NCBI GenBank assembly: GCA_020639135.1
Contig: JACKHE010000005.1
Coordinates: forward strand, 124,531 to 188,530
Direction of reading: 5' to 3'
Length of the DNA stretch: 64,000 bases
Origin: Phycisphaeraceae bacterium
Lineage (GTDB): Bacteria; Planctomycetota; Phycisphaerae; Phycisphaerales; UBA1924
In this document: piece after piece, positions 280-23,057 of the stretch
How positions within the stretch are numbered: position 1 is the first letter of the stretch
How the letters are laid out: every line of letters begins with the position of its first letter
Made by a program: the position numbers and the translations under genes
Notes under the pieces: model-generated
The model's database searches: none
What the model saw: the letters and a program-made list of their open reading frames with translations, nothing else
Told to the model about the DNA's origin: nothing

Positions 280-573
280 CCTCCTTGCCTACGAAGACAT
301 CAATACAATTGAGCGCACTCCCCAGGGCCCAATCCTCCAGTCAACCATGAGCACTGCAACATATTGAGAGAGACTGCATACGCAACTTGCGACGATCGGT
401 CCATTTGCGGCATTTGCCGCGTCCTCACAAGCGACTCAGGAAGCCCATACTGGGGCGCCGAGGAATGGACGGGTCAGTTGGAAATGTGCATTGCGCAGCA
501 GGTCGGCGGACTGTGTGGACTCGTAAAGCATACCATGCACACGAATTGAAACACTGACCAAGAGGAGAACGAG

Positions 574-1719: not shown

Positions 1720-2187
1720 GGCAAACACCGAGGAGATAATCAAGTCAAGTACCGAGGATGTGACAGAACACCCGCATCGGTAACCGCCTGAGGTTTGTGC
1801 CACGTTTCATCAGGCATCGTATCGACATAGTCAGTCGACTGGACACACAATACCAGGACACCGTGCGTTCTGGGCTTCGGCACAGGCAGCACTCGAGATC
1901 CCATGGGGCTAGTGGCTATCCGTAAACCTTATGAATCCCGAGAAAAATGAGCACAATACCGGGTTTACGGATAGCTTCTGGCGTGGGGCCGCGTGCGGCC
2001 TTCTGCCCGAGGTCATCCGGGTACAATGGGTGCGGTGCCAAGGGATGAGTATGTCACGAGACGGTATTCGATCTACACGCATTCGGATACACTTGTATCC
2101 CATGGGGGCAATTTACAGCGGTCGGCCAGATCACGGCGCCATGTTCAAATTGCCGAATTCGATTCTCGGTCACTTGGAGGACACACA

Positions 2188-2997
2188 ATGGCGGGCAGCG
2201 GGGAGCATTGGCAAGAGCACGAGACTTCTCTCAAATCAGTCGATGGCTTGGTGCTTGACGCACGTCTCATTGAAGTAAAGCACTCTGTCACGTCCGTTCT
2301 TCTGGTGCACGGCTTCGGCGTCGATCTGCATGAAGAGGGCACTTTCGACGTACTAGCCACCCGCCTCGCCGAGGCCAAGGTCTCCGTCGCACGCTTTTCC
2401 TTCCGCGGCCATGGAAAGAGTGCCGGCACACAGGAGGGAATGACAATCTCTGGTGAGCGACTCGACTTGACAGCCGCGTACAACTGGATGACACGTCGAT
2501 TATCGCCGCCCTACGCCATTCTTGCCGCGAGCTTCGGCGCGGTTTCGACTCTGCTTCAACTTCGTTCCATCCACAGTAAGCCCGCACGCCTTGTGCTGTG
2601 GAACCCAGTCCTGGACTTGGACGCGGTCTTCGTGGCACCTACCACTGTCTGGGGCAAGAAGAACTTTGGCAAGAGCGCGCTGGCAAAGGCCACATCTCAG
2701 GGCTACTCCATCGTCGATGGCTCCATTCGCGTTGGCCAGGTGTTTCTGGAAGAAACGGCGCTGTACTCTGGCAATCTTGGCGTCTTGGCTTTGTCGTCTG
2801 TACCGACGCTAGTGCTTCATGGTACCGACGACTCATACGTGCCCATTGCATCGTCCCGACAAGTGGCAGACATGCCCAACGTGCGGCTTGTTGAGATTCG
2901 TGATTCTGACCATGGGTTTCCAGATACCGCAAGCGAGGAAACAGCCATTACGGAGGCTGTACGCTGGCTCACCACGACTGCTCCGGATGCTCCATGA
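2188..2997 (+). CDS. alpha/beta-fold hydrolase
   Basis: The ORF track gives 1993-2997; I prefer ATG 2188 (GGAGG at 2176-2180). VLLVHGFGVD, nucleophile-elbow-like LAASFGA, LVLHGTDDSYVP and SDHGF fit the alpha/beta-hydrolase layout. Confidence 0.75.
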   Translation: MAGSGEHWQEHETSLKSVDGLVLDARLIEVKHSVTSVLLVHGFGVDLHEEGTFDVLATRLAEAKVSVARFSFRGHGKSAGTQEGMTISGERLDLTAAYNWMTRRLSPPYAILAASFGAVSTLLQLRSIHSKPARLVLWNPVLDLDAVFVAPTTVWGKKNFGKSALAKATSQGYSIVDGSIRVGQVFLEETALYSGNLGVLALSSVPTLVLHGTDDSYVPIASSRQVADMPNVRLVEIRDSDHGFPDTASEETAITEAVRWLTTTAPDAP

Positions 2998-3653
2998 TGC
3001 AATCGCAAGAAAGAGCCTTGGTAAAGATCGATTCCACCTGTGTCTGCGGAGGGGCCCTCGAAATCGGTGTGCCCTCTGAGGAGTCCATACGTAAGGCCAG
3101 TTCTCAACCGCTGGCAGACGTGAACATCGCAGCTAGGTGCATTGTCAAGAACTTTGTCACCATCCACGAAGGGGTCACGCTAGGGGAAGATGCGATCGTT
3201 GAGGACTACTGCCGCATCGGTGCAAACACGCGAGTTGGCGCCCGATCACGACTTGTCCATCGCGCGTATATATGCGACGACGTGGTCATCGGACAAGAGT
3301 GCCGCATCGCCGGCTTCGTCTGCGACGACAGTCAAATCGAAAGCAATTGCACAGTGATGGGGACGTTGGTACATGACTACAATCAGCCACACCGAGACTG
3401 GTGGGATGTCACCGAGCCGGCCCCCTTAGTGCGTCACCACTCGATTGTCGCGATGTCTTCGACAGTAGTTGGCAGCGTTGTCATTGGGCCGTACGCTTAT
3501 GTAGCCGCCGGCGCCCTCATAACACGCGACGTCCCGTCCTGGCACGTCGCGATCGGACGCAACGAATACGTGCACTGGAACAACTGGAAGGGCGCTCCAC
3601 TACGGGAACTCTTTGCTCACTGGCATTCGTATGAGAGTGGAGCCGGCGCATGA
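2994..3653 (+). CDS. hexapeptide-repeat (left-handed beta-helix) acyl/acetyltransferase
   Basis: ATGA overlap with the upstream stop. Repeated [LIV]-G-x4 turns: VTLGEDAIVEDYCRIGANTRVGARSRLV, VVIGQECRIAGFV, VVIGPYAYVAAGALI. Confidence 0.75.
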   Translation: MMQSQERALVKIDSTCVCGGALEIGVPSEESIRKASSQPLADVNIAARCIVKNFVTIHEGVTLGEDAIVEDYCRIGANTRVGARSRLVHRAYICDDVVIGQECRIAGFVCDDSQIESNCTVMGTLVHDYNQPHRDWWDVTEPAPLVRHHSIVAMSSTVVGSVVIGPYAYVAAGALITRDVPSWHVAIGRNEYVHWNNWKGAPLRELFAHWHSYESGAGA

Positions 3654-4882
3654 CATCTGGTAGTCAACTCAATGTGTTTATGGCATATCAGTTCCGCTCT
3701 TCCAAACTTGGCAAGATAGACCGAGAGTATGCGCTGGCACAGGCAGTGTCAGAAGTCAACAAGTCGCTCCGGGAGGAAGGGTCACATGACGTCGTGTCAT
3801 GGAATGCACTGGAGTTGGAAAGCTGGCACTCAGTTGGAGCGCAAGTTCTTAGCGGCATAAGAGAGAGTGCAGTATTCATCGCGGATATTTCAGAACTAAA
3901 CGCCAACGTGTTGCTTGAACTTGGGTATGCGATCGGCCTGTGCCAGGGTTCCAATTGTGTCACAGTTCACGTGCTCGCGCACGAGTCTCTCGATACTAGA
4001 AGCATCCCATCAGATCTTCTGGGCGGTTATGTTATCACTTACTCGGAGCAGAGCTTTCAGGCAGTCGTCACACGAGTACTCAGAGACTCTGCCGTTCGGC
4101 TTGCCGAGGGGCTGACCGCGCGTGCCGCTAATTCGAGCTGGCGCGAGCTGTGGGGAATCTCGTCAGATCATGCGGTCGATGTCATATGCTCTGAGATACC
4201 CGACGGGACCCGTCCTGACTTCGCACACTATGAGCACCCGAACTTCCTTCGCTACGCGAAATTTGCCGACTTGGACTCGCTTTTCCTCGTCCATGAGATC
4301 CTGGCCTCAGAGTTTCAACATACTCGAGTGCGCGACTACGGGGCCACTGAGTCAATTGCTCAACACGACAGTGGCATCCTTGTTGGTGGTGCCGCTTGGA
4401 ACGCAAGAGTTGAGCGTATTCAGCGTTGCTTGCCATTTGAGTTTATGGATGCCGAGAATCCAGAGACCGATTCGTTGCAAGTCCGAGCTGACGGTTCCAC
4501 GTGGCTCTTCGAGAGCACGTTCGCATCCTCCGGCATACCTGAGACTGACTACTATGTATTCGCCAAGTTTCGGCCGGATGGGCACAGCCGCTTGTTGTTG
4601 TTCGGCGGTGGGTTGACGCACGGCGTGCTCGGTGGAATCAAGACACTTGCACATGTGTCTCCCGGTCCGACCAATGCCTTATATCTCAGCAAGTGGTTTG
4701 GCGCCGCCGCAGACTTGGTGGTAGTTGGTTGCGTTGCCCATCGCGACGGCTATCTCAAGGCTCAAGACTTCAGGGTTTCACCACCGTGCCTAGTATTGCG
4801 GCGATCCGAGCCGGATTCTGAGTTCCATGTAGTCGAGTCCGCTTGCATCTGCAAGGTGCAGCATCAAAGGCCGTGTGAGTAA
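3650..4882 (+). CDS. protein with N-terminal nucleoside 2-deoxyribosyltransferase/TIR-like Rossmannoid domain and unknown C-terminal domain
   Basis: ATGA overlap with the upstream stop. N-terminal ~150 aa: NVFMAYQF...ESAVFIADISELNANVLLELGYAIGL. This resembles the D-x-S...N/D-x-G-x-x-x-E-x-G-Y-A signature of deoxyribosyltransferase-like domains. The C-terminal ~250 aa are not recognised. Confidence 0.6.
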   Translation: MTSGSQLNVFMAYQFRSSKLGKIDREYALAQAVSEVNKSLREEGSHDVVSWNALELESWHSVGAQVLSGIRESAVFIADISELNANVLLELGYAIGLCQGSNCVTVHVLAHESLDTRSIPSDLLGGYVITYSEQSFQAVVTRVLRDSAVRLAEGLTARAANSSWRELWGISSDHAVDVICSEIPDGTRPDFAHYEHPNFLRYAKFADLDSLFLVHEILASEFQHTRVRDYGATESIAQHDSGILVGGAAWNARVERIQRCLPFEFMDAENPETDSLQVRADGSTWLFESTFASSGIPETDYYVFAKFRPDGHSRLLLFGGGLTHGVLGGIKTLAHVSPGPTNALYLSKWFGAAADLVVVGCVAHRDGYLKAQDFRVSPPCLVLRRSEPDSEFHVVESACICKVQHQRPCE

Positions 4883-4883
4883 T

Positions 4884-5672
4884 ATGGTGACACGGATCAT
4901 TGTTGCGGGGCTCGCTCGGCGGCAGGATCGAAGGCGATTGGTTGAGCAACAGCTGCGCGCCAACAACGTCGCCAACTATGTGTTCGCAGCTGACCTTGAT
5001 CTCACCGTCGACTGGCAAGAGTGGGAACCGGATGATATTCGTCGGCTCACTGCTAGCTGCTATCCTTGGCGTCTGAATGACTCTACAAATCCCTGGTGGA
5101 ATCGCAGTATGACTTTGGGCGAAATCGCCTGCACGCTGACGCACTGGGCCATTTGGAACTATGCGGCCCAGCTGCAGTACACTAGTCTAATTGTGCTCGA
5201 AGATGACGCCATTCTGCTGCATGCGTTCGAAGATCGAGAACGTCTGATACAGAGTCTCTTCTGCTTAGATCCTTATTGGGATCTCTTGTACCTTGGGCGC
5301 GAACGACTCGAACCGGACCGTGATAACTGCGGCGAATTCGTCCGGCCGGGCTTCAGCTATTGCACACATGGGTACGCGCTGTCCCGCAAGGGAATTCAGC
5401 TGTTGCTGAGCACCCCATTAATGACGAGCATTATCCCTGTTGATGAGTTTCTACCAGCCATGTATATGGAACATCCACGTCATGATGTGCGAAGGCGATT
5501 CTCGCCAATTCTCGCTGCTTATGGGCTAAATCGAGATATAGTTGAAGTTAAGGGGTCTGCTCATATGGGTAGTGATACAGAGAATGCCCCGCTAATTGAG
5601 TCGGAACCGCCGTCGATTAGCAAGTCAACTCTGCCAGCACACGATGGGGAGGGTCTACAGAATGCAGAGTAG
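4884..5672 (+). CDS. glycosyltransferase family 25-like
   Basis: The ORF track starts at 4875 (GTG); ATG 4884 lies one nt after the upstream stop. RIIVAGLARRQDRR, MTLGEIACTLTHWAIW, LIVLEDDAILL, LYLGRE and CTHGYALSRKG match the GT25 (LPS/collagen galactosyltransferase-type) pattern. Confidence 0.7.
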   Translation: MVTRIIVAGLARRQDRRRLVEQQLRANNVANYVFAADLDLTVDWQEWEPDDIRRLTASCYPWRLNDSTNPWWNRSMTLGEIACTLTHWAIWNYAAQLQYTSLIVLEDDAILLHAFEDRERLIQSLFCLDPYWDLLYLGRERLEPDRDNCGEFVRPGFSYCTHGYALSRKGIQLLLSTPLMTSIIPVDEFLPAMYMEHPRHDVRRRFSPILAAYGLNRDIVEVKGSAHMGSDTENAPLIESEPPSISKSTLPAHDGEGLQNAE

Positions 5673-6261
5673 CGGAACAGAGAAGTTGGCGGACTGGATA
5701 TGGCTTTGCGAGCTTGCGGATTGCTGCGAGTCCCTTGGTTACACTCAAGGCTACATGGCCGCGGCGGCACACTGTCGTGGGGCGCTCTCCGGGGAGGCTA
5801 TGAGCGGCGTTCTCCGCGCCCCGTTCTCTATGGTGAGGCGCCGCGCAGTTCACCTGACTCGGTTCTTGCCGCGGGACGATGCGGTTGCCAAGCTTGCTGA
5901 GGTACTTGCCGCTGACGAATGTCCGGTCGTTCGTCACGAAGCGGCCTTCTGCCTAGGTACCTTTAGGAATGAGCTCGCGCTAGTCGCTCTTTCGAAGTCC
6001 GCGCTCAGCGATTCGGATGAGCTGGTCCGGCATGAGGCTTCCGAAGCGCTCGGAGACATGGGGCTTGAGGCAGCGAGAGAGACACTTGAGTTGGTACGGA
6101 TGGATAGCTGTGAATCGGTACGGCGAACGGCGGTGATGGCCCTGCAAGAGCTTGATATGCGCTGCATTCAACAATCAAGTGAAGTCATGAAAGCAGCTCG
6201 TATCGAGCCACCACCAGTTAACAATGAGGGTGATCCAGGGCGCTTCGCGGGGGCGAGTTGA
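5662..6261 (+). CDS. HEAT-repeat protein
   Basis: ATG 5662 overlaps the upstream stop by 11 nt. Three HEAT-like repeats: PVVRHEAAFCLGTF, ELVRHEASEALGDMG, ESVRRTAVMALQEL. Confidence 0.7.
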   Translation: MQSSGTEKLADWIWLCELADCCESLGYTQGYMAAAAHCRGALSGEAMSGVLRAPFSMVRRRAVHLTRFLPRDDAVAKLAEVLAADECPVVRHEAAFCLGTFRNELALVALSKSALSDSDELVRHEASEALGDMGLEAARETLELVRMDSCESVRRTAVMALQELDMRCIQQSSEVMKAARIEPPPVNNEGDPGRFAGAS

Positions 6262-6636
6262 TAGGCTGGCTTCTGGACAGGAAGTGGACTCTGCGGTGGG
6301 CACTCAATGGCGCAAGCCTCACCCACAGGCAGTTGACCGGGTGTCATACGAGAGGTATCCTTCTTCAAGCCGCACGTGCACCTATATGGACTGCTCACTT
6401 GACAAACGTGTCTGGCGCATGTCAGAAGACAAATGTCATTGAGACCAAAGGGGATAGCGGCGAGTGCCGACTAACGCACATCCCTTGCTGCGGCCGTCGA
6501 TGCATTCTCCGCGAACTGCCTCTAGCTTCAGTGAGATGTCCGGCCAGTCCGTATTCAAGCGCATGCACGTGCATACAGCGAATGTTCGGCACATCCGACC
6601 AATGCAGGCCGGCTATGCGGCTCTATAGTTCTTGTC

Positions 6637-7644
6637 ATGGTTCGACGAAGAGGTCGTCATCCCCGTGCGCTGCGAGCACCAATCTGGCTCCAGATCCCGT
6701 GCTTCATCATCGAGTTGGTCCCATTGACGGTGCCAATGTTAGTAATGGCCTCGGGTTTTCGGATCGCGGGAGGAATCATGCTGCCCATCGCAGGCTTCAT
6801 GTCACATTGGATCTACTTATCACTGACAAGGCAGACGAGACGAAGGGTTAACCAGACATACATCCGCCGTCGTGCGCGCAAACATGATGGTCCGTTCATT
6901 TTGCTTTGCCGATCGTACGAACAGGGTGGCAGATTCACGACCTCCGTGGATATTCCGAACTACGGTATCACCGACCTGAGGCTCATCGAGGCATTGATCT
7001 ACGACCTGAGTCACAGGAACACTGTCGTTGCTCTTGGGGACCAAGATATTCCGAAAGCCGAGCATCAAGGCCGTGCGTTGTATGTCGCAGAAGTTGCAAA
7101 GTCTAGCGAGAACATCATCGTCAGTGCGACCACCGGCGACACACTCTTAGACTCCGAAAAACTCTGGCAGAGACTGGTGCTCCGTCTCGCGGAATCGTCT
7201 CGTTGCATTGTTGTCGTCCCCGGACGCACGCATGGAGTCATTGAAGAACTCCTCCTTCTGCGGAGTGGCGGGTTCGGACACAAGACCTTTGTTTTTATGT
7301 GGCCCGATACGCATCCCTATACTGCGTTGTGTGCAGATTCCCGCGAGTGGGAGGTAGTGCGGGAAGAAATCTCTGCGAACGGCGTGATGCTCCCGCCACA
7401 CGAGCCCGGAGGTGCCTGGGTTAGACTGAATGACCAAGAGCCAGTGGATAGGGTTGTGTCACCAATTCCGCTGCGAAACGTACTCGAGCCGGTCATCGAG
7501 TGTCTTGCGGAGAGTGGTCGGTGGCTATCCGACGTTACAGAAGTGATCGAAATGTGCGAACTTTGTGCAGATCCGGAAAGATACGGGCATCTCTGGGGCT
7601 ATATGTCCGAGCAGAGAGAGTTCAGCGACCGCATGTGCCGGTAA
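6637..7644 (+). CDS. membrane-anchored protein with Rossmann-like (possibly LOG/SLOG-like) soluble domain
   Basis: Two hydrophobic helices near the N-terminus (IWLQIPCFIIELVPLTVPMLVMA; GGIMLPIAGFMSHWIYLSL). A beta/alpha-patterned domain follows (PFILLCRSYE, TVVALGDQD, CIVVVPGRTHGVIEELLLL, KTFVFMWPD). The resemblance of VPGxxxGxxEE to the LOG/SLOG PGGxGTxxE loop is weak and judged by eye. The start codon is uncertain. Confidence 0.5.
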   Translation: MVRRRGRHPRALRAPIWLQIPCFIIELVPLTVPMLVMASGFRIAGGIMLPIAGFMSHWIYLSLTRQTRRRVNQTYIRRRARKHDGPFILLCRSYEQGGRFTTSVDIPNYGITDLRLIEALIYDLSHRNTVVALGDQDIPKAEHQGRALYVAEVAKSSENIIVSATTGDTLLDSEKLWQRLVLRLAESSRCIVVVPGRTHGVIEELLLLRSGGFGHKTFVFMWPDTHPYTALCADSREWEVVREEISANGVMLPPHEPGGAWVRLNDQEPVDRVVSPIPLRNVLEPVIECLAESGRWLSDVTEVIEMCELCADPERYGHLWGYMSEQREFSDRMCR

Positions 7645-7930
7645 GTCAGGCCTTTTCAAACCGAGCTGACACAGACACGTCGATCTCCCGGGCAAGGTGC
7701 TCTGTTGATGTCAGTTCGGCCCCTATCTACGCGTGATGTTCATCGCAAGTGCGGCATTGTGACCAATTTACGGTCAGGATGAATATGGGCTTCTCAGCAG
7801 GCGCCATCGGCAGCCCAGTCGCAATGATCGGGTCGAGCCATGCATCCCGAAGAGCAGGGCGATGCTCCGAGTAACAGAATCTACTCTGAACGGTACACAG
7901 ACGTTGAAATGCGGAATACCCTAAAATCGA

Positions 7931-8500
7931 TTGTCGGTCGGATGGAGCTGCACCGTGACAGATTGTAAAGAAACCGCCCACGGTGATGGAACGGCGAAGG
8001 ACTTTGTCTTCATTAGCCACTCTCGCAGGGATCGGGCGTTTGTCGATCGCCTTGTCCGAGTCCTTCGGAGAGGCGGGATCGCGACCTGGCCAGATACCAA
8101 CGAGCTAGCCCCAGGAGAGAATTGGCATTTGGCTATTGAGGCAGGCATTCGCCAGTCTGCGGCCTTTCTATTTATGGCCAGTGCCGAATCGATCAACTCA
8201 CAGTGGATCTCGACAGAACTCAAGGCCGTTTTCGGGAAGGGCACCTGCGTTATTCCAGTAGTGCTCGATAACGAAGGTAAGCATGGCCTTCCTTCCTTCC
8301 TTCCTTCCTTCCTTCGCGATTGTGAATGGGTCGAATTCCGGACCGGTACGAGGCGGCTTTTGACCAACTCCTCAGGGCTCTCCTGCCGCTTCGCGCCGAG
8401 TCTGCGGTCAAACCAAGAGCCGGTCAAGCCAAAGGCTACGAGTTCCTCAGCTATGCTGAGCATGATGCTCCATTCGTGGATAGACTCAAGGAGTTCCTGA
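7931..8500 (+). CDS. TIR-domain protein (first TIR of an apparently frame-broken tandem-TIR gene)
   Basis: KDFVFISHSRRDRAFVDRLVRVLRRGGIATWPD...IRQSAAFLFMASAESINSQWISTELKAV...CVIPVVLD is a canonical bacterial TIR layout. The likely start is GTG 7955 (GGAG at 7944-7947) rather than TTG 7931. The last 52 codons (8342-8497) are low-complexity and overlap the next ORF. Confidence 0.8.
   Translation: MSVGWSCTVTDCKETAHGDGTAKDFVFISHSRRDRAFVDRLVRVLRRGGIATWPDTNELAPGENWHLAIEAGIRQSAAFLFMASAESINSQWISTELKAVFGKGTCVIPVVLDNEGKHGLPSFLPSFLRDCEWVEFRTGTRRLLTNSSGLSCRFAPSLRSNQEPVKPKATSSSAMLSMMLHSWIDSRSS
8287..8314. repeat. perfect tetranucleotide microsatellite (CCTT)7 inside the TIR coding sequence
   Basis: Direct reading: ccttccttccttccttccttccttcctt. 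It is translated LPSFLPSFL in the current frame. Confidence 0.95.
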
Positions 8501-8817
8501 AGCAGCGCAACAACGGGTACTGGGACTATCGTGAGAGCGATCGAAATTACCATGCAGAATTTTACCTCGAACTCGAATCTGTCATTCAGGAAGCTGCGGC
8601 GGTGCTATCCCTTTTATCACCTTGGTGGAAGCAAGCGCCCACGGCATTCAAGGAGTACTACTTTGCCATTGAGGTCGGGGTCCCCGTGTTCCTGCTGCGA
8701 GTCCGGAATCCCGGGCCCACGTTTGCTGTCGCAGGGATGCCATACATCAATATCTCGACAGATTACCATCTAGGTTTCAGGCAACTCGACAGAGAGTTGT
8801 TGAGAAATGGCCTTTAA
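8326..8817 (+). CDS. TIR-domain protein (second TIR of the frame-broken tandem-TIR gene)
   Basis: YEFLSYAEHDAPFVDRLKEFLKQRNNGYWDYRESD...IQEAAAVLSLLSPWWKQAPTAFKEYYFAIEVGVPVFLLRV is a second TIR domain. It overlaps the previous ORF by 175 nt in another frame. The N-terminal DRYEAAFDQLLRAL reads like the linker that should follow TIR 1. Confidence 0.75.
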   Translation: MGRIPDRYEAAFDQLLRALLPLRAESAVKPRAGQAKGYEFLSYAEHDAPFVDRLKEFLKQRNNGYWDYRESDRNYHAEFYLELESVIQEAAAVLSLLSPWWKQAPTAFKEYYFAIEVGVPVFLLRVRNPGPTFAVAGMPYINISTDYHLGFRQLDRELLRNGL

Positions 8818-8865
8818 TCATGTGGCGGTCACCGGGCGACTGCCGGACTCAACAAAGGAGAGAGC

Positions 8866-9237
8866 ATGGCTGAAAGGAAAGTAATATTCGTCGCGTTTGC
8901 GATTGAAGACGAGCGGCAGAGGGATCTCCTGAAGGGGCAGTCTCTTAATACGGCGTCGCCGTTTGAGTACACCGACATGTCCGTCAAAGAGCCATACAGC
9001 TCTGAATGGAAGGAGCGTGTCCGCACCCGAATTCGTCGCTCGGATGGAATAATCGCATTGGTGAGTAAGAACTCACTTACATCCAGCGGGCAGAAATGGG
9101 AGATCGCGGTCGCCAGCGAGGAAGGAAAACGCGTCCTCGGCATCTGGGCATACGCCGATGACAGGACCAACCTCCTAGGTGTCAGAACTGTAGCGTGGAC
9201 CTGGAACGCCATTGGGGACTTTATTGACAGCTTTTGA
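8866..9237 (+). CDS. ThsB/DUF1863-type TIR-like protein
   Basis: GGAG at 8857-8860, ATG at 8866. KVIFVAFAIEDERQRDLLKGQ...FEYTDMSVKEPYSSEWKERVRTRIRRSDGIIALVSKNSLTSSGQKWEIAVASEEGKRVLGIW matches the ThsB TIR-like pattern as I remember it. Confidence 0.75.
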   Translation: MAERKVIFVAFAIEDERQRDLLKGQSLNTASPFEYTDMSVKEPYSSEWKERVRTRIRRSDGIIALVSKNSLTSSGQKWEIAVASEEGKRVLGIWAYADDRTNLLGVRTVAWTWNAIGDFIDSF

Positions 9238-9249
9238 CAAGGTGGTGTC

Positions 9250-10224
9250 ATGCGCATCGCACTCATTGTCGGTATTGATTACTACGAACACGGTGGGGCA
9301 CTGTATGGCTGCGTGGATGATGCGCACGTTGTTAAGGCGGTTTTGGATCGTCATGGCGACGGGGCGGTCAATTTTGATTGCAAGCTCCTCACTGGAACAG
9401 GTCCGAATGATCGGGTCAATCGCAATGCCCTCAAGGATCACGTTGAAGAGTTATTCAAGGCACCGGCCGAGATTGCGCTGTTCTATTTTGCTGGACACGG
9501 CCATATTGAGGCGACCGGCGGCTATCTGCTGGCAACAGACTCACAACGCGGGGACGAGGGTCTCTCTCTTTCCGAGGTGCTGACGTTGGCAAATGCGTCG
9601 CCCGCACGTAATAAAGTTGTTGTGCTCGACAGCTGTCACTCTGGGATTGCTGGGAACCCTCCTTCATCCGGCAACCTCGCTGCGCTGTCTGAGGGAATGA
9701 CGGTGCTTACAGCATCGACGGCTGACCAATACGCTACGGAAGAGCATGGAAATGGAATCTTCACGACACTGCTGGTGGATGCTCTGCAGGGTGGGGCTGC
9801 CAATCTCACAGGTGACATAACTCCCGGTAGCGTGTACGCGCACGTAGATCAATCTCTCGGCGCGTGGGAGCAGCGACCGGTATTCAAAACAAACGTGCGG
9901 CAGTTCGTCTCCCTGCGGAAGGTTCCTCCGCCAATCGAGTTGGACGCGCTGCGCCAGATCATCGAGTTCTTTCCCGGACCAGGGGCAGAGTTCCAACTCG
10001 ATCCCACATTTGAACCTGAGTCAAAGGGTCGAGATTCTGACATGCCGCCTCCTGATCCCGAGAACACGCAAAGGTTTGCGGTGCTGCAACGCTATAACCG
10101 GCTGAACCTGGTCGTGCCGGTGGGGGCACCCCATATGTGGCACGCCGCGATGGAGAGCAAGACTTGCAAGCTGACAGTCCTTGGTGAGCACTACCGCCGC
10201 CTTGTGGAGCGGCAGCGAATTTAG
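9250..10224 (+). CDS. caspase-like (peptidase C14 / metacaspase-fold) protease with unknown C-terminal domain
   Basis: ATG lies 12 nt after the upstream stop. [12 protein letters not shown], His context FYFAGHGH and Cys context [10 protein letters not shown] are present. About 150 aa at the C-terminus are unassigned. Confidence 0.85.
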
Positions 10225-10253
10225 GGCGGTATCTGACTGCCAACGACCGATGA

Positions 10254-10469
10254 TTCCATTGTCCGAATCGTCTGGAGCATTCTCCGCGAGCGATCTTCAT
10301 ACTGAGAGTAGATTCCGCGTTTCCAGACTCCAAAGTCCGACTTGGACGACAAAGAGTTCAACCGGAGTTCCGTCACCCCGGGCAGAAGGTCGGGCGGCAT
10401 TGGCGTTTCCACAAGGCCGCGATCGACGATTGGCTGAATGCAGGCGGATGTCCGGGACGCGGTCTGTGA
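10254..10469 (+). pseudogene. relic of an excisionase-family (MerR-like) HTH gene
   Basis: The frame is open over 10254-10466 but contains no ATG/GTG/TTG. It ends ...QKVGRHWRFHKAAIDDWLNAGG..*, the signature C-terminus of excisionase-type HTH proteins. The N-terminal half is degenerate. Confidence 0.4.
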
Positions 10470-10579
10470 TGCCAAGACGGCAAAGTCACTCTACAAGGGG
10501 CCCCTGGCGAACAACTACGGCGAATGATTCCGGCTATTGGGTGGCTTGGTCGAGGTCACACCGCTGTCGGGCCGATAGA

Positions 10580-11596
10580 ATGGGGACGCATATGGCTACT
10601 TCCCCAGAACAAATCCGATTGCTGGTCGATTCGTTCGCCGAGCGCGATGATGAACGCTTCCGTACGGTCGCACTTGACATCGCAGCCGCAGCGGCAAGGG
10701 CGGGGGATCAAAAGCTCGCAAAATCTGTCCGGGCCATGGTTGATCGATCTCGAAGATCCGCGCTGCCATCGGTCGGTCCGAAGGCCGTGCCGATATCTCG
10801 TCCGGAGGGCGAGCTAGCGTCGCTGTTGACGGTTTCATATCCGAAGACTCGGTTCGTTGACATGGTCTTACCTGCCAAGTCGAAGGCCATCCTGGAACGG
10901 ATGCTCGAAGAGAACCGGTCGGCCACTACGCTACGGGCTCATGGATTCGAGCCGAGGAGAAGAGTTCTACTCGCGGGCCCTCCAGGCTGTGGCAAGACCA
11001 TGACTGCACGAGCAATCGCTGGGGAGACTGGATTGCCGCTTCTCGTGGTCCAGTTTCATGCCCTAATCACCAAGTACATGGGCGAGACGGGCGCGAAGCT
11101 CCATGCCATCTTTGAGTCAATGTCATCGACCAGAGGGGTCTACCTCTTTGACGAGTTCGACGTTGTCGGTACGAGCCGATCAGCGAGCAACGATGTTGGT
11201 GAAGCCCGACGAGTGGTCAACTCTTTTCTCCAACTGCTCGAACATGACGACTCAGAGAGCATCGTCATCGCAGCCACCAACATGGCAGGCACGCTCGATG
11301 AGGCGTTATTTCGGCGATTTGATGACATCGTCCAGTTCGGCAAGCCGAGTGGCGCTGAAGTTCGGAAACTTGTCGAGAACAGGCTTGCGGCCTTCGCTCC
11401 TCTGAAACTTCGCTGGACTGATATCTCAACAACCGCCAGGGGCTTAAGCCATGCCGAGGTTGTAAAGGCCTGCGAGGATGCTGCCAAGGCAGTGGTGCTG
11501 GGACACAAATCTGTGGTGACAACGGCCCAGATTGTCAGCGCTCTCAAGGCTCGAAGGCGCCCCTCGGCTCGGGCGAACCGCTCCCGAACGACGTAG
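10580..11596 (+). CDS. AAA+ ATPase (IetA-like)
   Basis: The ORF track starts at 10181; ATG 10580 or 10592 is preferred. Walker A LLAGPPGCGKT, Walker B VYLFDEFD and IVIAATN...LDEALFRRFD form a classic AAA+ module behind a ~130-aa helical N-domain. Confidence 0.85.
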   Translation: MGTHMATSPEQIRLLVDSFAERDDERFRTVALDIAAAAARAGDQKLAKSVRAMVDRSRRSALPSVGPKAVPISRPEGELASLLTVSYPKTRFVDMVLPAKSKAILERMLEENRSATTLRAHGFEPRRRVLLAGPPGCGKTMTARAIAGETGLPLLVVQFHALITKYMGETGAKLHAIFESMSSTRGVYLFDEFDVVGTSRSASNDVGEARRVVNSFLQLLEHDDSESIVIAATNMAGTLDEALFRRFDDIVQFGKPSGAEVRKLVENRLAAFAPLKLRWTDISTTARGLSHAEVVKACEDAAKAVVLGHKSVVTTAQIVSALKARRRPSARANRSRTT

Positions 11597-11605
11597 CATG
11601 ATTGC

Positions 11606-14092
11606 ATGTCGCAGCTCCCGCATCTGCAACTGATTGGTGGAGTCAGCGGAGTTCCGTATACCCGCCCCAAGTCCGGCTTCGGCGAATTCCAGACTCCTCC
11701 GAGAGATCGGATTGGACACGCTCGCTCATTACGGCAGAGCCTTCAATCTGCTCTTGCTCAAGGGCAAGCGGAGATCGAAGCACAACCTACGCCCGACGCA
11801 GTCACTGGATTGCAGTTCGTGATCGAGAGCCATGCGGGATATGACCTGCGACTTGAGAGCCTTGAGAATCGTCGGAAGGGCATCAAGCTACTTCACGTTA
11901 GTCAAGATGGCGATGTCCAACGGGCCGTAATCTTCGTTCCGCGGACAGCGTACGGTACTCTGTCGGATCGGATCGACGAATACGAAACTCGTGTCAGAGA
12001 CTCAGGCAATCCTTGGCATGCCCCTCTAATCGAGAGCATCGAGCGGATTCGGTTAGCAATTGCGGAGGATCTATGGTCTGACCCTACGCCATTCCCCGCT
12101 GATGAAGGTGCACTTTGGTGGGAGGCCTGGATTCCGCTTGATGGTAAAGAACCGGCTGTCATTCATGGCGAGTTGATCGAGTTGGCGGTGAGCCTTGGGA
12201 TCGGGATCGGTCGGCGTTGGCTCACGTTCTCAGAGCGGCTCGTCACCCTCGTCAAGGCACGCCCTTCGGATTGGGCTCGATCGCGTCAGTTGCTCGAAAC
12301 AGTGGCGGAACTACGAGCCCCCGTCGAGCCTGCTGCCCCGTATCTCAATCTATCGCCGATTGAGCAGGCTGCGTGGATCAATAACCTCAGAGCGAGGATT
12401 CGGATTGCTCATCCCAATGCTCCTGCCGTTTGCTTGCTCGATACCGGAGTGGATCGAGGACATCCGCTCCTCGAAGATTCGCTTCTGGAAGCCGATTGGC
12501 AAGCCGTCGATAGCGATTGGGGATCTGCGGACAATGCTGAGCAAGAGGGGCACGGTCCACATGGAACGTTGATGGCAGGGACGGCACTCTTTGGCGATCT
12601 AGGCGAGCGGCTTCGAGAATTTGGCACCCTCAGCTTGAGCCATCGTCTTGAGTCCATCCGAATTCTGCCGAGGCGGGGCAACAACGATCCTGAGCTTTAC
12701 GGAGACATCACGCAGCAGGCGGTCTCTCTCGCTGAAGTAGCTGCCCCCGCTCGCCGCAGAGCCGTATGCCTCGCCGTCACCGCTAAGGACACATCTGGTC
12801 AAGGCGCCCCCAGTTCGTGGTCTGCTGCCGTTGACCAGTTGGCATATGGCGACGGGGCGTTAACTCGGATGGTTCTCGTATCGGCAGGGAACATTCGGGA
12901 GTACACAAACGGGTACGCCTACCCACAGTCGAACCTCGATGCAGCGGGAATACTCGACGATCCCGCTCAAGCGTCGAACGCACTGGTCGTCGGAGCATTC
13001 ACTCAACGAACGCAGCTATCGCCAGATTACGCTGGATGGCGTGCAATCGCTCCCGCAGGCGGCCTCGCTCCCATGAGCCGTACGAGCGCTGCATGGGACC
13101 AAGGTAATCGCTCCCCGTGGCCACTCAAGCCCGACATCGTTTTTGAGGGCGGCAACTTGATCACCGACGCCTCGTCAGCGATCTCTCCATGCGCCGAAAC
13201 AGAACTGCTGACGACATCGGTCGCAACTACCGGCGCGCTCTTCGACACGAACTCTGGAACCAGCGCTGGGGTCGCTCAGGCATCTCGATTAGCCGCCCGA
13301 ATCATGGCGAAGTACCCTTCATTGAGACCCGAGACCATTCGGGCGCTTCTTGTTCACTCCGCCGAATGGACGGACGCGATGCGAGAGCAAGTGCCAGGCA
13401 CGACCAAGGAAGTGGTTCGCCGTCGAGTTCGTACCTTCGGCTATGGTGTTCCGAACGAGTTGCGAGCCATGTCGAGCTTGTCGAACGCCGTCACGCTCGT
13501 ATCCGAATCAGCGATTACGCCGTACACGACCGGCAGCAATGGAGCGAAAGCGAATCAGATGGGGCTTCACGAGTTGCCCTGGCCGAGCGATGCTCTGTAT
13601 GCCCTCGGTGATGTCCAAGTCCGCATGCGGGTCACTTTGTCGTACTTCATCGAGCCCAATCCCGGGCGTCGGGGCCGAATCCCTCGGTCTCGCTACGCAT
13701 CGCATGGTCTCCGATTCGATGTGCTTCGTCCTGGCGAAACGGTCGATGAGTTTCGACAGCGGGTTTCTGCCGCGGAGCGGGACGACCCCGATGCAGACAT
13801 CGACACGACGGGCGAGTCGAGGGACTGGGTCATCGGAGTCAATGGCCGAGCGCGAGGCTCCCTCCAAGCAGATTGGTGGGAGGGCTCAGCCACGCAACTT
13901 GCGGGGAGTCATGCGATTGCCGTCTACCCCGTCACGGGGTGGTGGAAAGAACGGTCCTTCCTCGGCAAGGTCGAATCACCCGCCCGCTACAGCCTCGTCG
14001 TCTCGATCGAGACTCCTCCGGAAGCGATCGATCTGTATGCGCTCCTGACAGCGCAGACAGAGATCCAGGTCGAAGCTGTAGGCAACGCGTAG
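11606..14092 (+). CDS. cytoplasmic subtilisin-like S8 serine peptidase (IetS-like)
   Basis: Starts 9 nt after the ATPase stop. Triad in D-H-S order: CLLDTGVD, GHGPHGTLMAGTA, NSGTSAGVAQASRLAA. No signal peptide; long N- and C-terminal extensions. Confidence 0.85.
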   Translation: MSQLPHLQLIGGVSGVPYTRPKSGFGEFQTPPRDRIGHARSLRQSLQSALAQGQAEIEAQPTPDAVTGLQFVIESHAGYDLRLESLENRRKGIKLLHVSQDGDVQRAVIFVPRTAYGTLSDRIDEYETRVRDSGNPWHAPLIESIERIRLAIAEDLWSDPTPFPADEGALWWEAWIPLDGKEPAVIHGELIELAVSLGIGIGRRWLTFSERLVTLVKARPSDWARSRQLLETVAELRAPVEPAAPYLNLSPIEQAAWINNLRARIRIAHPNAPAVCLLDTGVDRGHPLLEDSLLEADWQAVDSDWGSADNAEQEGHGPHGTLMAGTALFGDLGERLREFGTLSLSHRLESIRILPRRGNNDPELYGDITQQAVSLAEVAAPARRRAVCLAVTAKDTSGQGAPSSWSAAVDQLAYGDGALTRMVLVSAGNIREYTNGYAYPQSNLDAAGILDDPAQASNALVVGAFTQRTQLSPDYAGWRAIAPAGGLAPMSRTSAAWDQGNRSPWPLKPDIVFEGGNLITDASSAISPCAETELLTTSVATTGALFDTNSGTSAGVAQASRLAARIMAKYPSLRPETIRALLVHSAEWTDAMREQVPGTTKEVVRRRVRTFGYGVPNELRAMSSLSNAVTLVSESAITPYTTGSNGAKANQMGLHELPWPSDALYALGDVQVRMRVTLSYFIEPNPGRRGRIPRSRYASHGLRFDVLRPGETVDEFRQRVSAAERDDPDADIDTTGESRDWVIGVNGRARGSLQADWWEGSATQLAGSHAIAVYPVTGWWKERSFLGKVESPARYSLVVSIETPPEAIDLYALLTAQTEIQVEAVGNA

Positions 14093-14262
14093 CTGGCATT
14101 TGAAAGGTCTGCCGAGCTGGTTGTTCCTCAACATGCGTTCTTGGCGCAAAGATGCCGGGCATTCCGATTACTTGAAGCCAATAGGTATCCCGCCGTGACC
14201 TGACCGGAAGGGCTGTTCACGGAAAGGCAATAGCTCGTGGGGCCATGCCGTAGGCAACCTCT

Positions 14263-14288
14263 AGCGTCCACCTGTGGACGCTTTTTTT
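14263..14288 (+). terminator. rho-independent terminator candidate
   Basis: 8-bp perfect stem agcgtcca/tggacgct (14263-14270 and 14275-14282), 4-nt loop cctg, then a T7 run (14282-14288). It lies 170 nt downstream of the S8 gene. Confidence 0.6.
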
Positions 14289-14369
14289 GCATCTTGAGCC
14301 CAAGGGATGCATAAGATCGTTGCTATAGCTGAAATGCATCAATGATACTTATCAGGTGGAAATGTAGCT

Positions 14370-15494
14370 CTAGCAAGTAACTAAAGCCTGCATGACCTTC
14401 TCCGACTCCCCATCATGCAGGTGGTAGTACAAATCGAGGATCGAGGAGCTTGAATGGCCCATCCACGCCATCGCCATGCGGTAGGGGACGCCGGAGTTGG
14501 CGATCATCGAGGCGAAGTGGTGCCTCATCGAGTGGGTTTTCAGGCGGCTGTCAGCTCCGACGGCCCTGGCGGCGGTCTTGATCCTGGCCAGGATCATCCG
14601 GTCGCGCATCGGCGGGAGCATCCAGTCGCCTGAGCGGGGCAGCCCCTCGACAACTGGACGGATCCGAGGATGGATTGGCACTGACCGCTCCTCTTTGTCT
14701 TTAGTTGTCCCGTTGGAGCCGCCGCGACGGATCCGAAAAAATCCCAGCTCACCCTTGTCGAGGAGCACATCCTCCCAGCGGAGGGCCAGCAGCTCGCCAA
14801 CGCGCATCCCGGAATAGGCCAGGACGGCGACAGCTTCGGTGTAGGGGCTGTCTAGGCGCCCAATGATCGCCTCGACCTCCTCGGTGGTCGGGCACGGCTG
14901 CGGGCGAGCCTTGGCCTTGGGTAGTTCGGCCCCCGCGAACTCGTACGTCGGCGTCATCTTCTGCCGCCACGCCCACTTGAAGAGCTGCTTCCAGAGGACC
15001 ATGGCGCTGTAGATGGACTTGGGGCTGTAGGGGGCGCGCTGCTTGTGGCGCTTGGACTCCAGCCACGCCTTGAAGCGGTACAGGTCACGCTCGACAGCGC
15101 GGTCGGCATAGACGAGCATGATGGATTTGCAGAACTGCCGGATCTTCTCCAGCTCGGAACGGTACTTGGCCTGTGACTTGGGCGCGAGGCCCTTGTTCTC
15201 GCAATGCTCGGAGTACTGATCAGCAAGATCGTCGATGGTGATGCGCTCGATACGATCTTGAGCACGACCAGCGTCGAGACGCTGCTGGATTTCATACGCC
15301 TTGCGCTTTGCGGCCTGTTTGTTCCGGGTGCCCAGCCCAACGACGCGGCGCACGCCATCTACATCTGTGAAGCGGGCAGAATAGGCCTGATAGGTGACGG
15401 TCCTCCGCTGCCCGCCCTTGGTCTTGCGGTTAACCGTGCGGCGATAGATGGTGACCTCGGTGCCATCAACCTTCTCAGCATTGGGGTACGCCAT
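14370..15494 (-). CDS. tyrosine recombinase / phage-type integrase
   Basis: C-terminal catalytic region: LAYSGMRVGELLAL, HSMRHHFASM, GHSSSSILDLYYH (R...HxxR...Y pattern). Confidence 0.9.
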   Translation of the reverse strand: MAYPNAEKVDGTEVTIYRRTVNRKTKGGQRRTVTYQAYSARFTDVDGVRRVVGLGTRNKQAAKRKAYEIQQRLDAGRAQDRIERITIDDLADQYSEHCENKGLAPKSQAKYRSELEKIRQFCKSIMLVYADRAVERDLYRFKAWLESKRHKQRAPYSPKSIYSAMVLWKQLFKWAWRQKMTPTYEFAGAELPKAKARPQPCPTTEEVEAIIGRLDSPYTEAVAVLAYSGMRVGELLALRWEDVLLDKGELGFFRIRRGGSNGTTKDKEERSVPIHPRIRPVVEGLPRSGDWMLPPMRDRMILARIKTAARAVGADSRLKTHSMRHHFASMIANSGVPYRMAMAWMGHSSSSILDLYYHLHDGESEKVMQALVTC

Positions 15495-15497
15495 GGG

Positions 15498-15788
15498 TCA
15501 GTCGTCCTCCCTCGTGGAAGGGGCGGAGAACGTACCGCTGCTGCCGGTCGGGCGCAACCGTTTTCGCCTGGATCGACCGCTAAAAAACCACTCCACCAGC
15601 CCATCGCGCCAGAATCTCAGGGGATTCCCTCGTCTAACGGACCTCTTACAACAGCGGTCCTCGCTCACCCAGCGGTAGATCGTGGACTTGGAAACTTGGA
15701 GGAGCGCGGCGGCCTGGTCCGGCGTGAGGATGGGCGGGAAGCGGTCCGCGTCGATGGCCTCTCGGATCTCCTCCCTAGAGAACTTCAT
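15498..15788 (-). CDS. excisionase-family HTH DNA-binding protein
   Basis: An internal ATG at 15788 is preferred over the ORF-track start 15917, whose N-terminus is R/P/S-rich. LTPDQAAALLQVSKSTIYRWVSE is an HTH. The stop lies 3 nt from the integrase ATG. Confidence 0.7.
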   Translation of the reverse strand: MKFSREEIREAIDADRFPPILTPDQAAALLQVSKSTIYRWVSEDRCCKRSVRRGNPLRFWRDGLVEWFFSGRSRRKRLRPTGSSGTFSAPSTREDD

Positions 15789-16050
15789 CGATGATCTCGC
15801 GGGGCTGGGCGCGCCGGGTGTTCGTCCCGATGTGCGGGTTGCACTCTTGGAAGGGTCGCATCGGTGGGGAGGGGTTGACGTCGCCGCGCGTGGCGACCCC
15901 ACCGCCACCACCGTCATTGCCGAGGATCGCGCCCATAACTCCGAGCGCCACTCCGACGACGACAGCGATTGGGAAGAAGCACGAGTTCAGGAAGGCGTCA
16001 AGTGCGCGTTCAGCGTCAAACACCGCGATCATGCTGATCAATTGATTCAT
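15775..16050 (-). CDS. small membrane protein, paralogue A (NPxPPxRxFQ motif family, unknown)
   Basis: GGAGAA six nt before the ATG at 16050. One hydrophobic helix (FFPIAVVVGVALGVMGAIL), then GNDGGGGG, then TRGDVNPSPPMRPFQ. Overlaps the xis start by 14 nt. Confidence 0.55.
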   Translation of the reverse strand: MNQLISMIAVFDAERALDAFLNSCFFPIAVVVGVALGVMGAILGNDGGGGGVATRGDVNPSPPMRPFQECNPHIGTNTRRAQPREIIDEVL

Positions 16051-16110
16051 GGCGAGTTCTCCGTGTTGACAGGGTGATGGGCGTCATCCGTCCGGCTTCT
16101 TGGCGGGTGC

Positions 16111-16323
16111 TCAGGTGTACGGGCTGCCGTATTGGAAAGCCCGCACCGGGGGCATTGGGTTGATGTCGCCGCGGGTGATGCACCCGCCGCCTCCACCGTC
16201 GCCATCGCCGAAGATGAGGGCGAAGACCAAGATGGCGATGAGAATCGCCATGCCGAGCGCACCGGCGCCGGGGTCATACGCGCCGGAACCGATCTGCGCG
16301 AAATACTCCAGGATCGTGATCAT
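16111..16323 (-). CDS. small membrane protein, paralogue B
   Basis: Internal ATG at 16323 with GGAGGA six nt upstream. MITILEYFAQIGSGAYDPGAGALGMAILIAILVFALIFGDGDGGGGGCITRGDINPMPPVRAFQYGSPYT. ATGA overlap with paralogue C. Confidence 0.6.
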   Translation of the reverse strand: MITILEYFAQIGSGAYDPGAGALGMAILIAILVFALIFGDGDGGGGGCITRGDINPMPPVRAFQYGSPYT

Positions 16324-16661
16324 GATGGGTCCTCCTGCGCAATGAGGGATGCGGGTGGGGGGTCGATGAGCAACATCTCGCGAACTGCCCAGCGGCCGGG
16401 GATCTGAGGGCGCGGGTTGACATCGTGGAACGACAGCCGAGCAAGGTTGGGACCAGCGTTCTGGAAGGCGCGCAGCGGCGGCGCCGGATTGAGCTCGCAG
16501 AGCGCAACGGTGGTGTCGGTGGGCTCCGCGATCTCGTCGACGACAGCGGAGCGACGCGCGATGCACAGCAGCACGATCAACGCGATGAACGTGGTCAGAG
16601 TGAACCAGTTGAGGACCACGACAAACGCGGAGTCAGAAGAGTTCTGCGCGAGCATCACCAT
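16320..16661 (-). CDS. small membrane protein, paralogue C
   Basis: Internal ATG at 16661 with GGGGAGG seven nt upstream. Helix FVVVLNWFTLTTFIALIVLLCIA, then CELNPAPPLRAFQ plus a degenerate second copy HDVNPRPQIPGRW. Confidence 0.55.
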   Translation of the reverse strand: MVMLAQNSSDSAFVVVLNWFTLTTFIALIVLLCIARRSAVVDEIAEPTDTTVALCELNPAPPLRAFQNAGPNLARLSFHDVNPRPQIPGRWAVREMLLIDPPPASLIAQEDPS

Positions 16662-16737
16662 CTCAGCGCCTCCCCGTCGTGTGCGGGTCGATCCGGCGTC
16701 GGCTTGAAGAACGCAGCGATCCCGAAGTGGGGACACC

Positions 16738-17691: not shown

Positions 17692-17839
17692 CGGTGATGG
17701 TGTTTGCATGCGGACAGCATGCGCTGCGCCCGTCGGACGGCTGATCGGATCTTCTGCGCGCTTTAGCTGTCGTGGAAATCCGACCTAGCGTCCGATGACC
17801 GTGGTGTTCAATGACCTCCAGCGAAAGGAGGTCACCCCC

Positions 17840-20297: not shown

Positions 20298-20532
20298 GTA
20301 TGTGCTAACCAAGCCCCATTCGTCCAAAGCCCAATGCAGTTTGTGTCAAGAATGTTTTGGGTGGAGTTTCGAAAGAATCGATTTGATCTGTTTTTGTATT
20401 AAAAATCGATTATTACCAAGCACTAACGGGATGCAGTCAAAATTTGTTTTTGCATGCACTGATGGACAATGCAGCTATTTTCCAGAGGGCATTTTGGTAG
20501 TGTGTGCTGATCGTGCCCGCTCTTCCGTCTTG

Positions 20533-21528: not shown

Positions 21529-21554
21529 CCGGATAACGAAAGGAATCTCTTACG

Positions 21555-22942: not shown

Positions 22943-23057
22943 ATGTCATTGCTTATCAATGTTGCGCACACGAAGAGATGCCTAGCTGGCAATAATTCGA
23001 GATACTCCAGTGGGCGACGAACGAGAATAGCGTGTGCAAAGGCAGTTGAGCAAGCGC

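Follow-up and report, generated by a model that had tools for sequence, protein, structure and literature searches.

A predicted type IV Thoeris pair and a disrupted tandem-TIR gene in a Phycisphaeraceae genome

A stretch of 64,000 nucleotides (nt) on contig JACKHE010000005.1 of a Phycisphaeraceae bacterium (hereafter, the window) contains a locus, at positions 7931-10224, in which two TIR domains are encoded upstream of a small gene for a ThsB-type TIR protein, which in turn is followed by a gene for a caspase-like protease. This raises the question of whether the locus corresponds to type IV Thoeris, a defence system in which a TIR protein signals to such a protease, or to a variant of that system. 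A prediction made from the sequence alone (the original prediction) had described it as a type IV-like abortive-infection module leading from TIR to protease, possibly a variant with three TIR-type domains and with a C-terminal protease domain not accounted for by the described two-gene system. We consider it likely, with good confidence, that the locus represents a known system, namely an intact copy of type IV Thoeris that is now also found in a metagenome-assembled genome (MAG) of the Planctomycetota. Next to it, a 1-nt frameshift has probably turned the tandem-TIR gene into a pseudogene.

The ThsB-caspase pair

The two genes of the core pair, thsB and thsE, were present as originally predicted, encoding proteins of 123 and 324 amino acids (aa) on the plus strand with a spacer of 12 nt (Table 1). 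The tandem-TIR region ends 48 nt upstream of thsB, and a Shine-Dalgarno-like sequence (AAGGAGAG) was found 5' of thsB. Pfam and PADLOC scans near the locus covered ten open reading frames (ORFs) across 3650-14092. ThsB matched Pfam ThsB_TIR (E = 4.2e-9; 37.2 bits, cut-off 21.2), and residues 1-214 of ThsE matched Peptidase_C14 (E = 3.8e-16). Both matches lie above the gathering cut-offs, and PADLOC agrees (ThsB, E = 1.8e-7; caspase, E = 4.7e-18), so the profile searches that the original prediction had proposed as a check came out in its favour.

The catalytic residues of both proteins appear to be in place. The candidate catalytic glutamate of ThsB is E79 within the motif GQKWEI, of which WEI is at least 97% conserved in an alignment of 45 sequences. 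In ThsE, FYFAGHGH holds His83 and LDSCHSG puts the cysteine at position 129. In an alignment of 81 sequences of the caspase family, GHG and CHSG are nearly invariant, and the cysteine is located at position 129 in 76 of the 81, which bears out the intact His and Cys sites claimed before. Furthermore, the caspase departs from the consensus at only 1 of 130 conserved columns and ThsB at 1 of 53, and both core genes look fully functional.

Type IV Thoeris has been described by Rousset et al. (bioRxiv 10.1101/2024.10.24.620036) as a system in which a short TIR protein makes N7-cyclic ADP-ribose (N7-cADPR) upon infection. This molecule activates a caspase-like protease, by which many proteins, including EF-Tu, are cleaved after arginine, and defence is abolished by the exchange E79Q in PsTIR or C129A in PsCaspase. 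The name ThsE for the effector comes from Yirmiya et al. (10.64898/2025.12.03.692087), and type IV Thoeris was reported to be dependent on a capsid vertex protein (Chen et al. 2026). For the detection of such systems, Rousset et al. used the rule that a TIR gene (TIR_2 or ThsB_TIR) has to be located within one gene of a PsCaspase-homologous gene. Judged by its sequence, the window pair is an arrangement of precisely this kind, with the TIR gene adjoining a PsCaspase-homologous caspase gene, and it likewise has the catalytic glutamate and the Cys/His dyad of type IV Thoeris.

A comparison with the system of Pseudomonas sp. 1-7 supports this assignment. PsTIR, obtained by translating the sequence given in Table S2 of Rousset et al., has the same length of 123 aa as the window ThsB, and the two proteins are 66% identical in an ungapped alignment over all 123 residues. 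The window caspase was compared to PsCaspase indirectly, through loci with a near-identical ThsB (L067 and L070-L073, including Pseudomonas sp. CR3202; ThsB 92-94% identical to PsTIR), whose 328-aa caspases start with MRKALVVGI as PsCaspase does. With these, the window caspase shares 61-63% identity over its full length and 60-63% in residues 1-214 and 215-324 alike. The window pair and the Pseudomonas sp. 1-7 system have in common the catalytic positions (E79 of the TIR protein, His83 and Cys129 of the protease), the order of TIR gene and caspase gene on one strand with a minimal spacer, the setting in a defence island, and an effector of two-domain layout with homologous C-terminal domains. 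However, the hosts differ, with the window deriving from the Planctomycetota (Phycisphaeraceae MAG), and so do the caspases (324 aa in the window compared to 328 aa in the Pseudomonas type, with ~61-63% identity). Moreover, the window contains a disrupted tandem-TIR gene upstream of the pair, whereas 'NA' is given for Pseudomonas sp. 1-7 in the column 'Additional TIR' of the published table.

That TIR and protease form an abortive-infection module of the type IV kind is thus supported by the identity to PsTIR, the shared numbering of E79 and C129, and the conservation of the pair in most of the loci surveyed below. Gene integrity, homology, catalytic residues, synteny and the frameshift can be read from the sequences themselves, whereas the signal chemistry, the protease specificity and the roles of the C-terminal domain and of the tandem TIR are inferred. 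The following mechanism is deduced from homology to the Pseudomonas sp. 1-7 system. The 123-aa ThsB would be switched on by phage infection and, once activated, would convert NAD+ to the cyclic signal N7-cADPR, which would then activate the 324-aa ThsE, probably via its conserved C-terminal domain and in a dimer. ThsE would cut many cell proteins after arginine, EF-Tu included, and this proteolysis would halt phage production, with the infected cell being sacrificed.

Other assignments of the two proteins were considered as well. Sequence searches of the PDB with the caspase and ThsB returned zero matches, and an NCBIfam scan yielded no type IV Thoeris match but solely sub-threshold matches to caspase_w_EACC1 and ThcB4. 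The former (NF047832, EACC1-associated caspase) covers only the protease domain (100.1 bits, E = 1.2e-28, cut-off 140); ThsE is related to the EACC1-associated caspases, yet below the cut-off for membership. For type I Thoeris, which is defined by a ThsA with SIR2 or a transmembrane part plus SLOG, neither SIR2 nor a ThsA SLOG domain was found by Pfam or PADLOC among the ten scanned ORFs. With regard to type III Thoeris, ORF A of the tandem-TIR region scored 17.1 bits against Thoeris_type3_ThcB4 (cut-off 220) and a SLOG effector was not found nearby, and with regard to CHAT or CRISPR-associated caspases, the CHAT score was 19.8 bits (cut-off 24) and matches to cas, SAVED or CARF families were absent from the scanned ORFs (3650-14092). 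A scan for sigma-70 promoters and terminators between 7500 and 10800 did not find any, although sigma-70 models are uninformative for a planctomycete.

The phylogenetic spread of the pair was assessed by a homology search with the caspase, which resulted in 7,661 matches. The best 120 of these are 81-100% identical to the window protein and 324-327 aa in length, with nearly all having exactly 324 aa. Among the organisms named as their sources are Phycisphaeraceae, Nitrospira, Acidobacteriota, Chloroflexi, Pseudomonas, Aeromonas, Alcaligenes and Lysobacter, and a match with 100% identity names a Phycisphaeraceae MAG. These sources belong to Planctomycetota, Nitrospirota, Acidobacteriota and Chloroflexota as well as several Pseudomonadota. 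The similarity in sequence and length among the best 120 matches is an unusually tight conservation, implying recent horizontal spread, strong constraint, or both. Furthermore, near-full-length matches to the caspase family were found in at least 52 plasmid records, and many of the matching plasmids are predicted to be conjugative. In the neighbourhood survey, one genome per species was scanned and 80 loci were retrieved, and a tblastn search with the window ThsB identified a homologue directly upstream of the caspase in 59 of them, several with two in tandem, so that the survey suggested along with the original prediction supports the pairing. The loci in which ThsB was not detectable presumably carry another TIR type, as E. 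coli 328 does.

These results also bear on the possibility that the pair consists of a housekeeping or developmental metacaspase and an unrelated small nucleoside-binding protein without a role in defence. While ThsB does show weak, sub-threshold matches to Nuc_deoxyrib_tr and to cpYpsA/SLOG-like families, this explanation is extremely improbable in view of the high identity to a pair whose role in defence was validated by experiment, the strict ThsB-caspase pairing across phyla, the setting in a low-GC island that also holds IetAS and an integrase, and the frequent carriage on plasmids.

The part of the caspase that is not covered by Pfam corresponds to residues 215-324, i.e., ~110 aa rather than the ~150 aa previously estimated. 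Its conservation equals that of the protease domain (0.74 for both in the 81-sequence alignment), and near-invariant blocks are QRPxFKTNV, HMxxAAM and LTxLGEH. In the window protein, QRPxFKTNV corresponds to residues 208-216, HMWHAAM to 295-301 and LGEH to 311-314. Since this domain belongs to the published ThsE and has already been proposed as a sensor for N7-cADPR (Rousset et al. hypothesised that the C-terminal domain of the effector binds it in a dimer), it is not a variant feature, and with 60-63% identity to the Pseudomonas-type effectors it can no longer be regarded as unaccounted for. An AlphaFold2 model of the full caspase, which was based on a shallow alignment (81-90% identity), reached a mean predicted local distance difference test score (pLDDT) of only 51, with the protease domain below 50 and without significant Foldseek matches. 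A structure prediction of the C-terminal domain, which had been proposed together with a search for a nucleotide pocket, succeeded insofar as the domain alone gave a confident model (pLDDT 80). However, Foldseek did not find a match to this model in the PDB at E <= 0.001, the best being weakly similar to MarR/winged-helix-like structures (TM 0.35-0.47), and therefore the fold and the nucleotide pocket were left unassigned.

The tandem-TIR gene upstream of thsB

The two additional TIR domains described by the original prediction were indeed identified as TIR_2 domains 48 nt before thsB, but they are encoded by two ORFs that overlap in different frames, and the region 7931-8817 is not one ORF. 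In the NCBI record, ORF A is annotated as a 181-aa product starting with GTG at 7955, and in the Logan assembly ORF B was called as a gene of its own, encoding 163 aa. The homology of ORF A stops at ~8341 (...EWVEFR), leaving its last ~50 codons as an out-of-frame tail, and resumes at 8341 in the frame of ORF B (DRYEAAF...). If a single base is added, a fusion of 295 aa results, which aligns without gaps across the junction of FR and DRYEAAF with 20 intact homologues of ~271 aa. In total, 57 homologues of the fusion were found, mostly intact single proteins of ~271 aa with two TIR-type domains. Compared to this family, the window copy possesses both domains and the invariant residues and differs in not being a single ORF, which makes it a disrupted member.

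Additional signs of decay were found in the same gene. In a DNA alignment of nine homologous genes, both the single-base gap and a 12-nt insertion (4 aa, LPSF) occur in the window copy only. The insertion belongs to a (CCTT)7 run, which is the sole tetranucleotide repeat of at least 5 units in the 64-kb window. Moreover, of 80 columns with a conservation of at least 90%, the window copy differs in 9 (Y30H, Y195N, L211F, T225V, S236A, S246A, L265F, D274N and F275I), whereas 0-2 such departures were counted in nine of the ten closest relatives and 5 in the remaining one. The 4-aa insertion and the nine substitutions at conserved positions are compatible with relaxed constraint on this copy.

Phase variation through the (CCTT)7 run was examined as an explanation of the frameshift and rejected: the run is in frame, the shift lies 27 nt downstream of it, and a change in the CCTT copy number cannot restore the reading frame because frame B contains a TGA at 8323-8325. 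Programmed frameshifting was considered as well, and a slippery heptamer was not found at the site. An independent Logan contig is identical to the MAG contig base for base, including the frameshift, and begins exactly at 8287, the first base of the CCTT run. This break hints at heterogeneity on the level of reads or at an assembly problem.

These observations allow weighing whether the locus is a functional three-gene variant after all, with the frameshift being an artefact or one allele of several, so that the tandem-TIR protein is made and represents a genuine third component. The same order of three genes with intact 271-aa genes in six other contigs (see below), the short same-strand spacers to thsB (48-137 nt), and the invariant glutamate retained in both TIR domains (E96 and E242) are in line with this explanation, and the break of the Logan contig exactly at the repeat could reflect read-level heterogeneity. 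However, the identical frameshifted sequence was obtained in two assemblies, the deletion past the repeat would not be compensable by any number of repeat units given the stop in frame B, the site lacks a slippery heptamer, and the insertion as well as the substitutions at positions conserved to at least 90%, including Y30H, Y195N and D274N/F275I, fit a relaxed constraint. We therefore regard a functional three-gene system in this genome as quite improbable and favour a pseudogene next to an intact pair.

Intact relatives of the tandem-TIR gene nevertheless recur together with the pair. In six contigs (L083, L084, L132, L133/134, L137 and L138), an intact gene for a ~271-aa tandem-TIR protein is followed by those for ThsB and the caspase, all on the same strand and with the tandem TIR 50-137 nt upstream of thsB, while the flanking regions are different each time. 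In L132, the cassette (6001-8226) is flanked by copies of the insertion sequence IS110, the one in L083 spans 5001-7224, and L133/134 originates from a Chloroflexi MAG. The identity to the window is ~58-68% for the tandem TIR and 84-88% for ThsB and the caspase. With regard to the proposed three-TIR variant, the recurrence of a tandem TIR with the pair thus stands, but additional TIR genes had already been tabulated for type IV systems, and the copy in the window is frameshifted and decaying.

Most likely, an intact tandem TIR would act as a second, divergent sensor and signal synthase of the ThsB type that widens the range of phages recognised. This would be reminiscent of type I Thoeris, in which divergent thsB genes add phage range while producing the same signal for one effector (Ofir et al., bioRxiv 10.1101/2021.01.06.425286). 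Similarly, the column 'Additional TIR' in Table S1 of Rousset et al. is filled for dozens of type IV systems, and Yirmiya et al. described islands with many ThsB genes. The window resembles such multi-TIR type IV and multi-thsB type I loci in having more than one divergent TIR gene beside a single effector. It differs in that the extra gene belongs to a 271-aa family with two TIR domains and is frameshifted, and in that this gene is located upstream of thsB, whereas in many Pseudomonas rows of Table S1 the consecutive gene numbering places it on the far side of the caspase. An accessory protein with two TIR domains was not found in the text of Rousset et al., Ofir et al. or Yirmiya et al.

The family is not confined to caspase partners. 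Close relatives of the tandem TIR were found with SLATT and DUF4062 (L135/136), with TIR_2 and DUF4062 (L139), and with ThsB and a transposase (L140). In L135 and L136, a tandem TIR with 58% identity is followed by a 152-aa SLATT protein, as in type VII Thoeris (TIR and SLATT, cADPR; Yirmiya et al. 2025), and therefore the tandem-TIR family can pair with another Thoeris-type effector. The window differs from type VII in lacking a SLATT gene and having a caspase as its effector, and the L135 arrangement also holds DUF4062 genes. Taken together, the sequences suggest that the tandem TIR is a mobile, modular gene that recurs in a three-gene cassette with the pairs of a single type IV Thoeris subclade and is dispensable to the pair.

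A more far-reaching idea is that the 271-aa two-TIR protein constitutes a dedicated third component of a type IV subclass, either as a second sensor and signal synthase with cooperating TIR domains or as a modulator of the N7-cADPR signal with a TIR fold. The (CCTT)n run would then be a hypermutable site for on/off switching or for generating variants, and the window would show a recently switched-off or decaying allele of a new three-component architecture. We mention this as a speculative option that is rather unlikely to hold.

Several points weigh against our own reading and should be considered here. The relationship of the window caspase to PsCaspase was established by the indirect route described above, and the ligand-binding role of its C-terminal domain is a hypothesis, as the fold has no significant counterpart in the PDB. 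Evidence for the frameshift comes from a single set of reads, the MAG contig and the Logan contig being identical, and the deletion may be a systematic sequencing error. With regard to the tandem TIR, the closest relative of the caspase (90% identical, L082) does not have one, it was found in 0 of the 80 species-representative loci, and homologues at <=47% identity adjoin housekeeping-like genes, namely those for an aminotransferase, ornithine carbamoyltransferase (OTCase), BatA/VWA and epimerases. For these last two reasons, it is a hypothesis that the tandem TIR functions together with ThsE.

It could accordingly be assumed that the tandem TIR is an autonomous, stand-alone defence gene, e.g., a self-contained NADase, that merely travels together with the pair and does not signal to ThsE. 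Apart from the unrelated neighbours of distant members, the other partners of close members, and the closest caspase relative without a tandem TIR, its faster divergence compared to the core pair (67% identity against 85-88%) would fit this assumption. Yet six independent contigs have kept gene order, strand and short spacing to thsB in spite of differing flanks, in one case between IS110 copies. Furthermore, the exchange of the partner for SLATT resembles the modular logic of TIR and effector in Thoeris, and a faster divergence is expected of a sensor as well. We consider an autonomous gene to be unlikely on balance, though deserving attention, and retain the second-sensor reading.

The survey also revealed loci that are of interest in their own right. 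In L135 (3373-11371) and L136, dense multi-TIR islands contain the tandem TIR, SLATT (152 aa), DUF4062, a 470-aa TIR_2 protein, a CAP12-type TIR and ThsB, and thereby resemble type VII Thoeris plus extras. In L097 (3411-10283), a more distant pair similar to type IV, comprising a 153-aa ThsB and a 329-aa caspase (46% identical), has a tandem TIR behind rather than in front of it, and the next protein, of 1507 aa, combines NACHT/DUF4062 with an FGE-sulfatase domain. In L126 (3564-7448), a distant tandem TIR (~31%) is followed after 52 nt by a gene for a 975-aa protein that comprises NUDIX, RelA/SpoT (resembling alarmone synthetases), prokaryotic LSDAT SLOG and RyR parts and that is a candidate for an effector sensing a TIR-derived signal; a description of such an effector was not encountered.

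The surrounding island

The locus is located in a region of low GC content (~55% in the first ~17 kb of the window, compared to ~68% further on). Directly downstream of the caspase gene, adjacent genes for IetA and IetS were identified (Table 1), which together reportedly form the defence system IetAS (Gao et al. 2020), consisting of an AAA+ ATPase and a subtilase. It was considered whether IetAS is part of the Thoeris system, and this was rejected: IetA or IetS adjoins the pair in 0 of 80 + 50 related Thoeris or tandem-TIR loci, and IetAS is a separate, neighbouring system. The same holds for a 335-aa ORF upstream of the tandem-TIR region (6637-7644), which lacks Pfam, PADLOC and NCBIfam matches and has a homologue in 0/130 related loci. 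With its integrase, excisionase-like and methyltransferase genes, the region 1-17700 probably represents a mobile element of the integrative kind that carries the defence genes and that extends to the left beyond the window. A tRNA scan for an integration site was negative within the window.

Table 1. Features of the locus and of the adjacent genes, given as positions within the window.
Feature	Position	Strand	Description
ORF A	7931-8500	+	189 aa; N-terminal TIR_2 (E = 1.3e-23, residues 26-139); candidate catalytic Glu E96
(CCTT)7 repeat	8287-8314	+	In frame, encodes LPSFLPSFL, inside the first TIR domain
ORF B	8326-8817	+	163 aa; C-terminal TIR_2-like (E = 2.5e-11); W198, D199, E242 (fusion numbering)
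Frameshift site	8339-8345	+	1-nt deletion at ~8343, CGG-GAC read as CGGAC, ORF A to ORF B
thsB	8866-9237	+	123 aa; predicted ThsB-type TIR signal synthase of type IV Thoeris
thsE	9250-10224	+	324 aa; predicted caspase-like protease effector
thsE, protease part	9250-9891 (residues 1-214)	+	Peptidase_C14; His83 and Cys129
thsE, C-terminal domain	9892-10224 (residues 215-324)	+	Conserved; presumed N7-cADPR sensor
IetA, AAA+ ATPase	10592-11596	+	PADLOC E = 1.9e-67; Pfam AAA
IetS, subtilase	11606-14092	+	PADLOC E = 3.4e-34; Pfam Peptidase_S8
Tyrosine integrase	14370-15494	-	Downstream of IetAS
HTH_17, excisionase-like	~15498-15788	-	
N6_N4 DNA methyltransferase	16738-17691	+	

Upstream in the same region, a 410-aa ORF (3650-4882, plus strand) shows weak, sub-threshold matches to the TIR of CAP12/Pycsar effectors (22.3 bits, cut-off 24.7) and to a PADLOC TIR effector (E = 5e-4). 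Its neighbours are genes for sugar modification, namely those for a hexapeptide acetyltransferase (2994-3653) and a GT25 glycosyltransferase (4875-5672).

Further pockets of low GC content were found at 20-23 kb (~50%) and 29-32 kb (~45%). Large ORFs without a Pfam match are located at 18330-20297 (655 aa), 20302-21528 (408 aa), 22151-22942 (263 aa) and 28955-30889 (644 aa). The first of these weakly matches mad8 of PADLOC (E = 1.3e-7), and a HerA/FtsK-like ATPase on the minus strand (23058-24872) matches PADLOC HerA and mad8 at ~1e-15. The genes of these pockets (18330-24872 and 28955-30889) may represent further uncharacterised defence or mobile-element genes. In addition, a 781-aa protein encoded on the minus strand (43410-45755) strongly matches the Ser/Thr kinase of PD-T4-6 in PADLOC (E = 1.4e-71), but it may simply belong to the numerous kinases of planctomycetes and have no part in defence.

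Meaning for type IV Thoeris

Type IV Thoeris is a published, mechanistically characterised and very widespread system, of which the window pair is a clear orthologue. In this locus, the core pair is intact, and the putative accessory sensor beside it illustrates how such a gene decays, by a frameshift, the expansion of a repeat and substitutions. The C-terminal domain of ThsE, being as constrained as the protease domain, marks residues for mapping the N7-cADPR pocket. Finally, the cassette in which tandem TIR, ThsB and ThsE recur together offers a clonable test case for whether phage sensing in type IV Thoeris is broadened by additional TIR proteins in the way described for type I.

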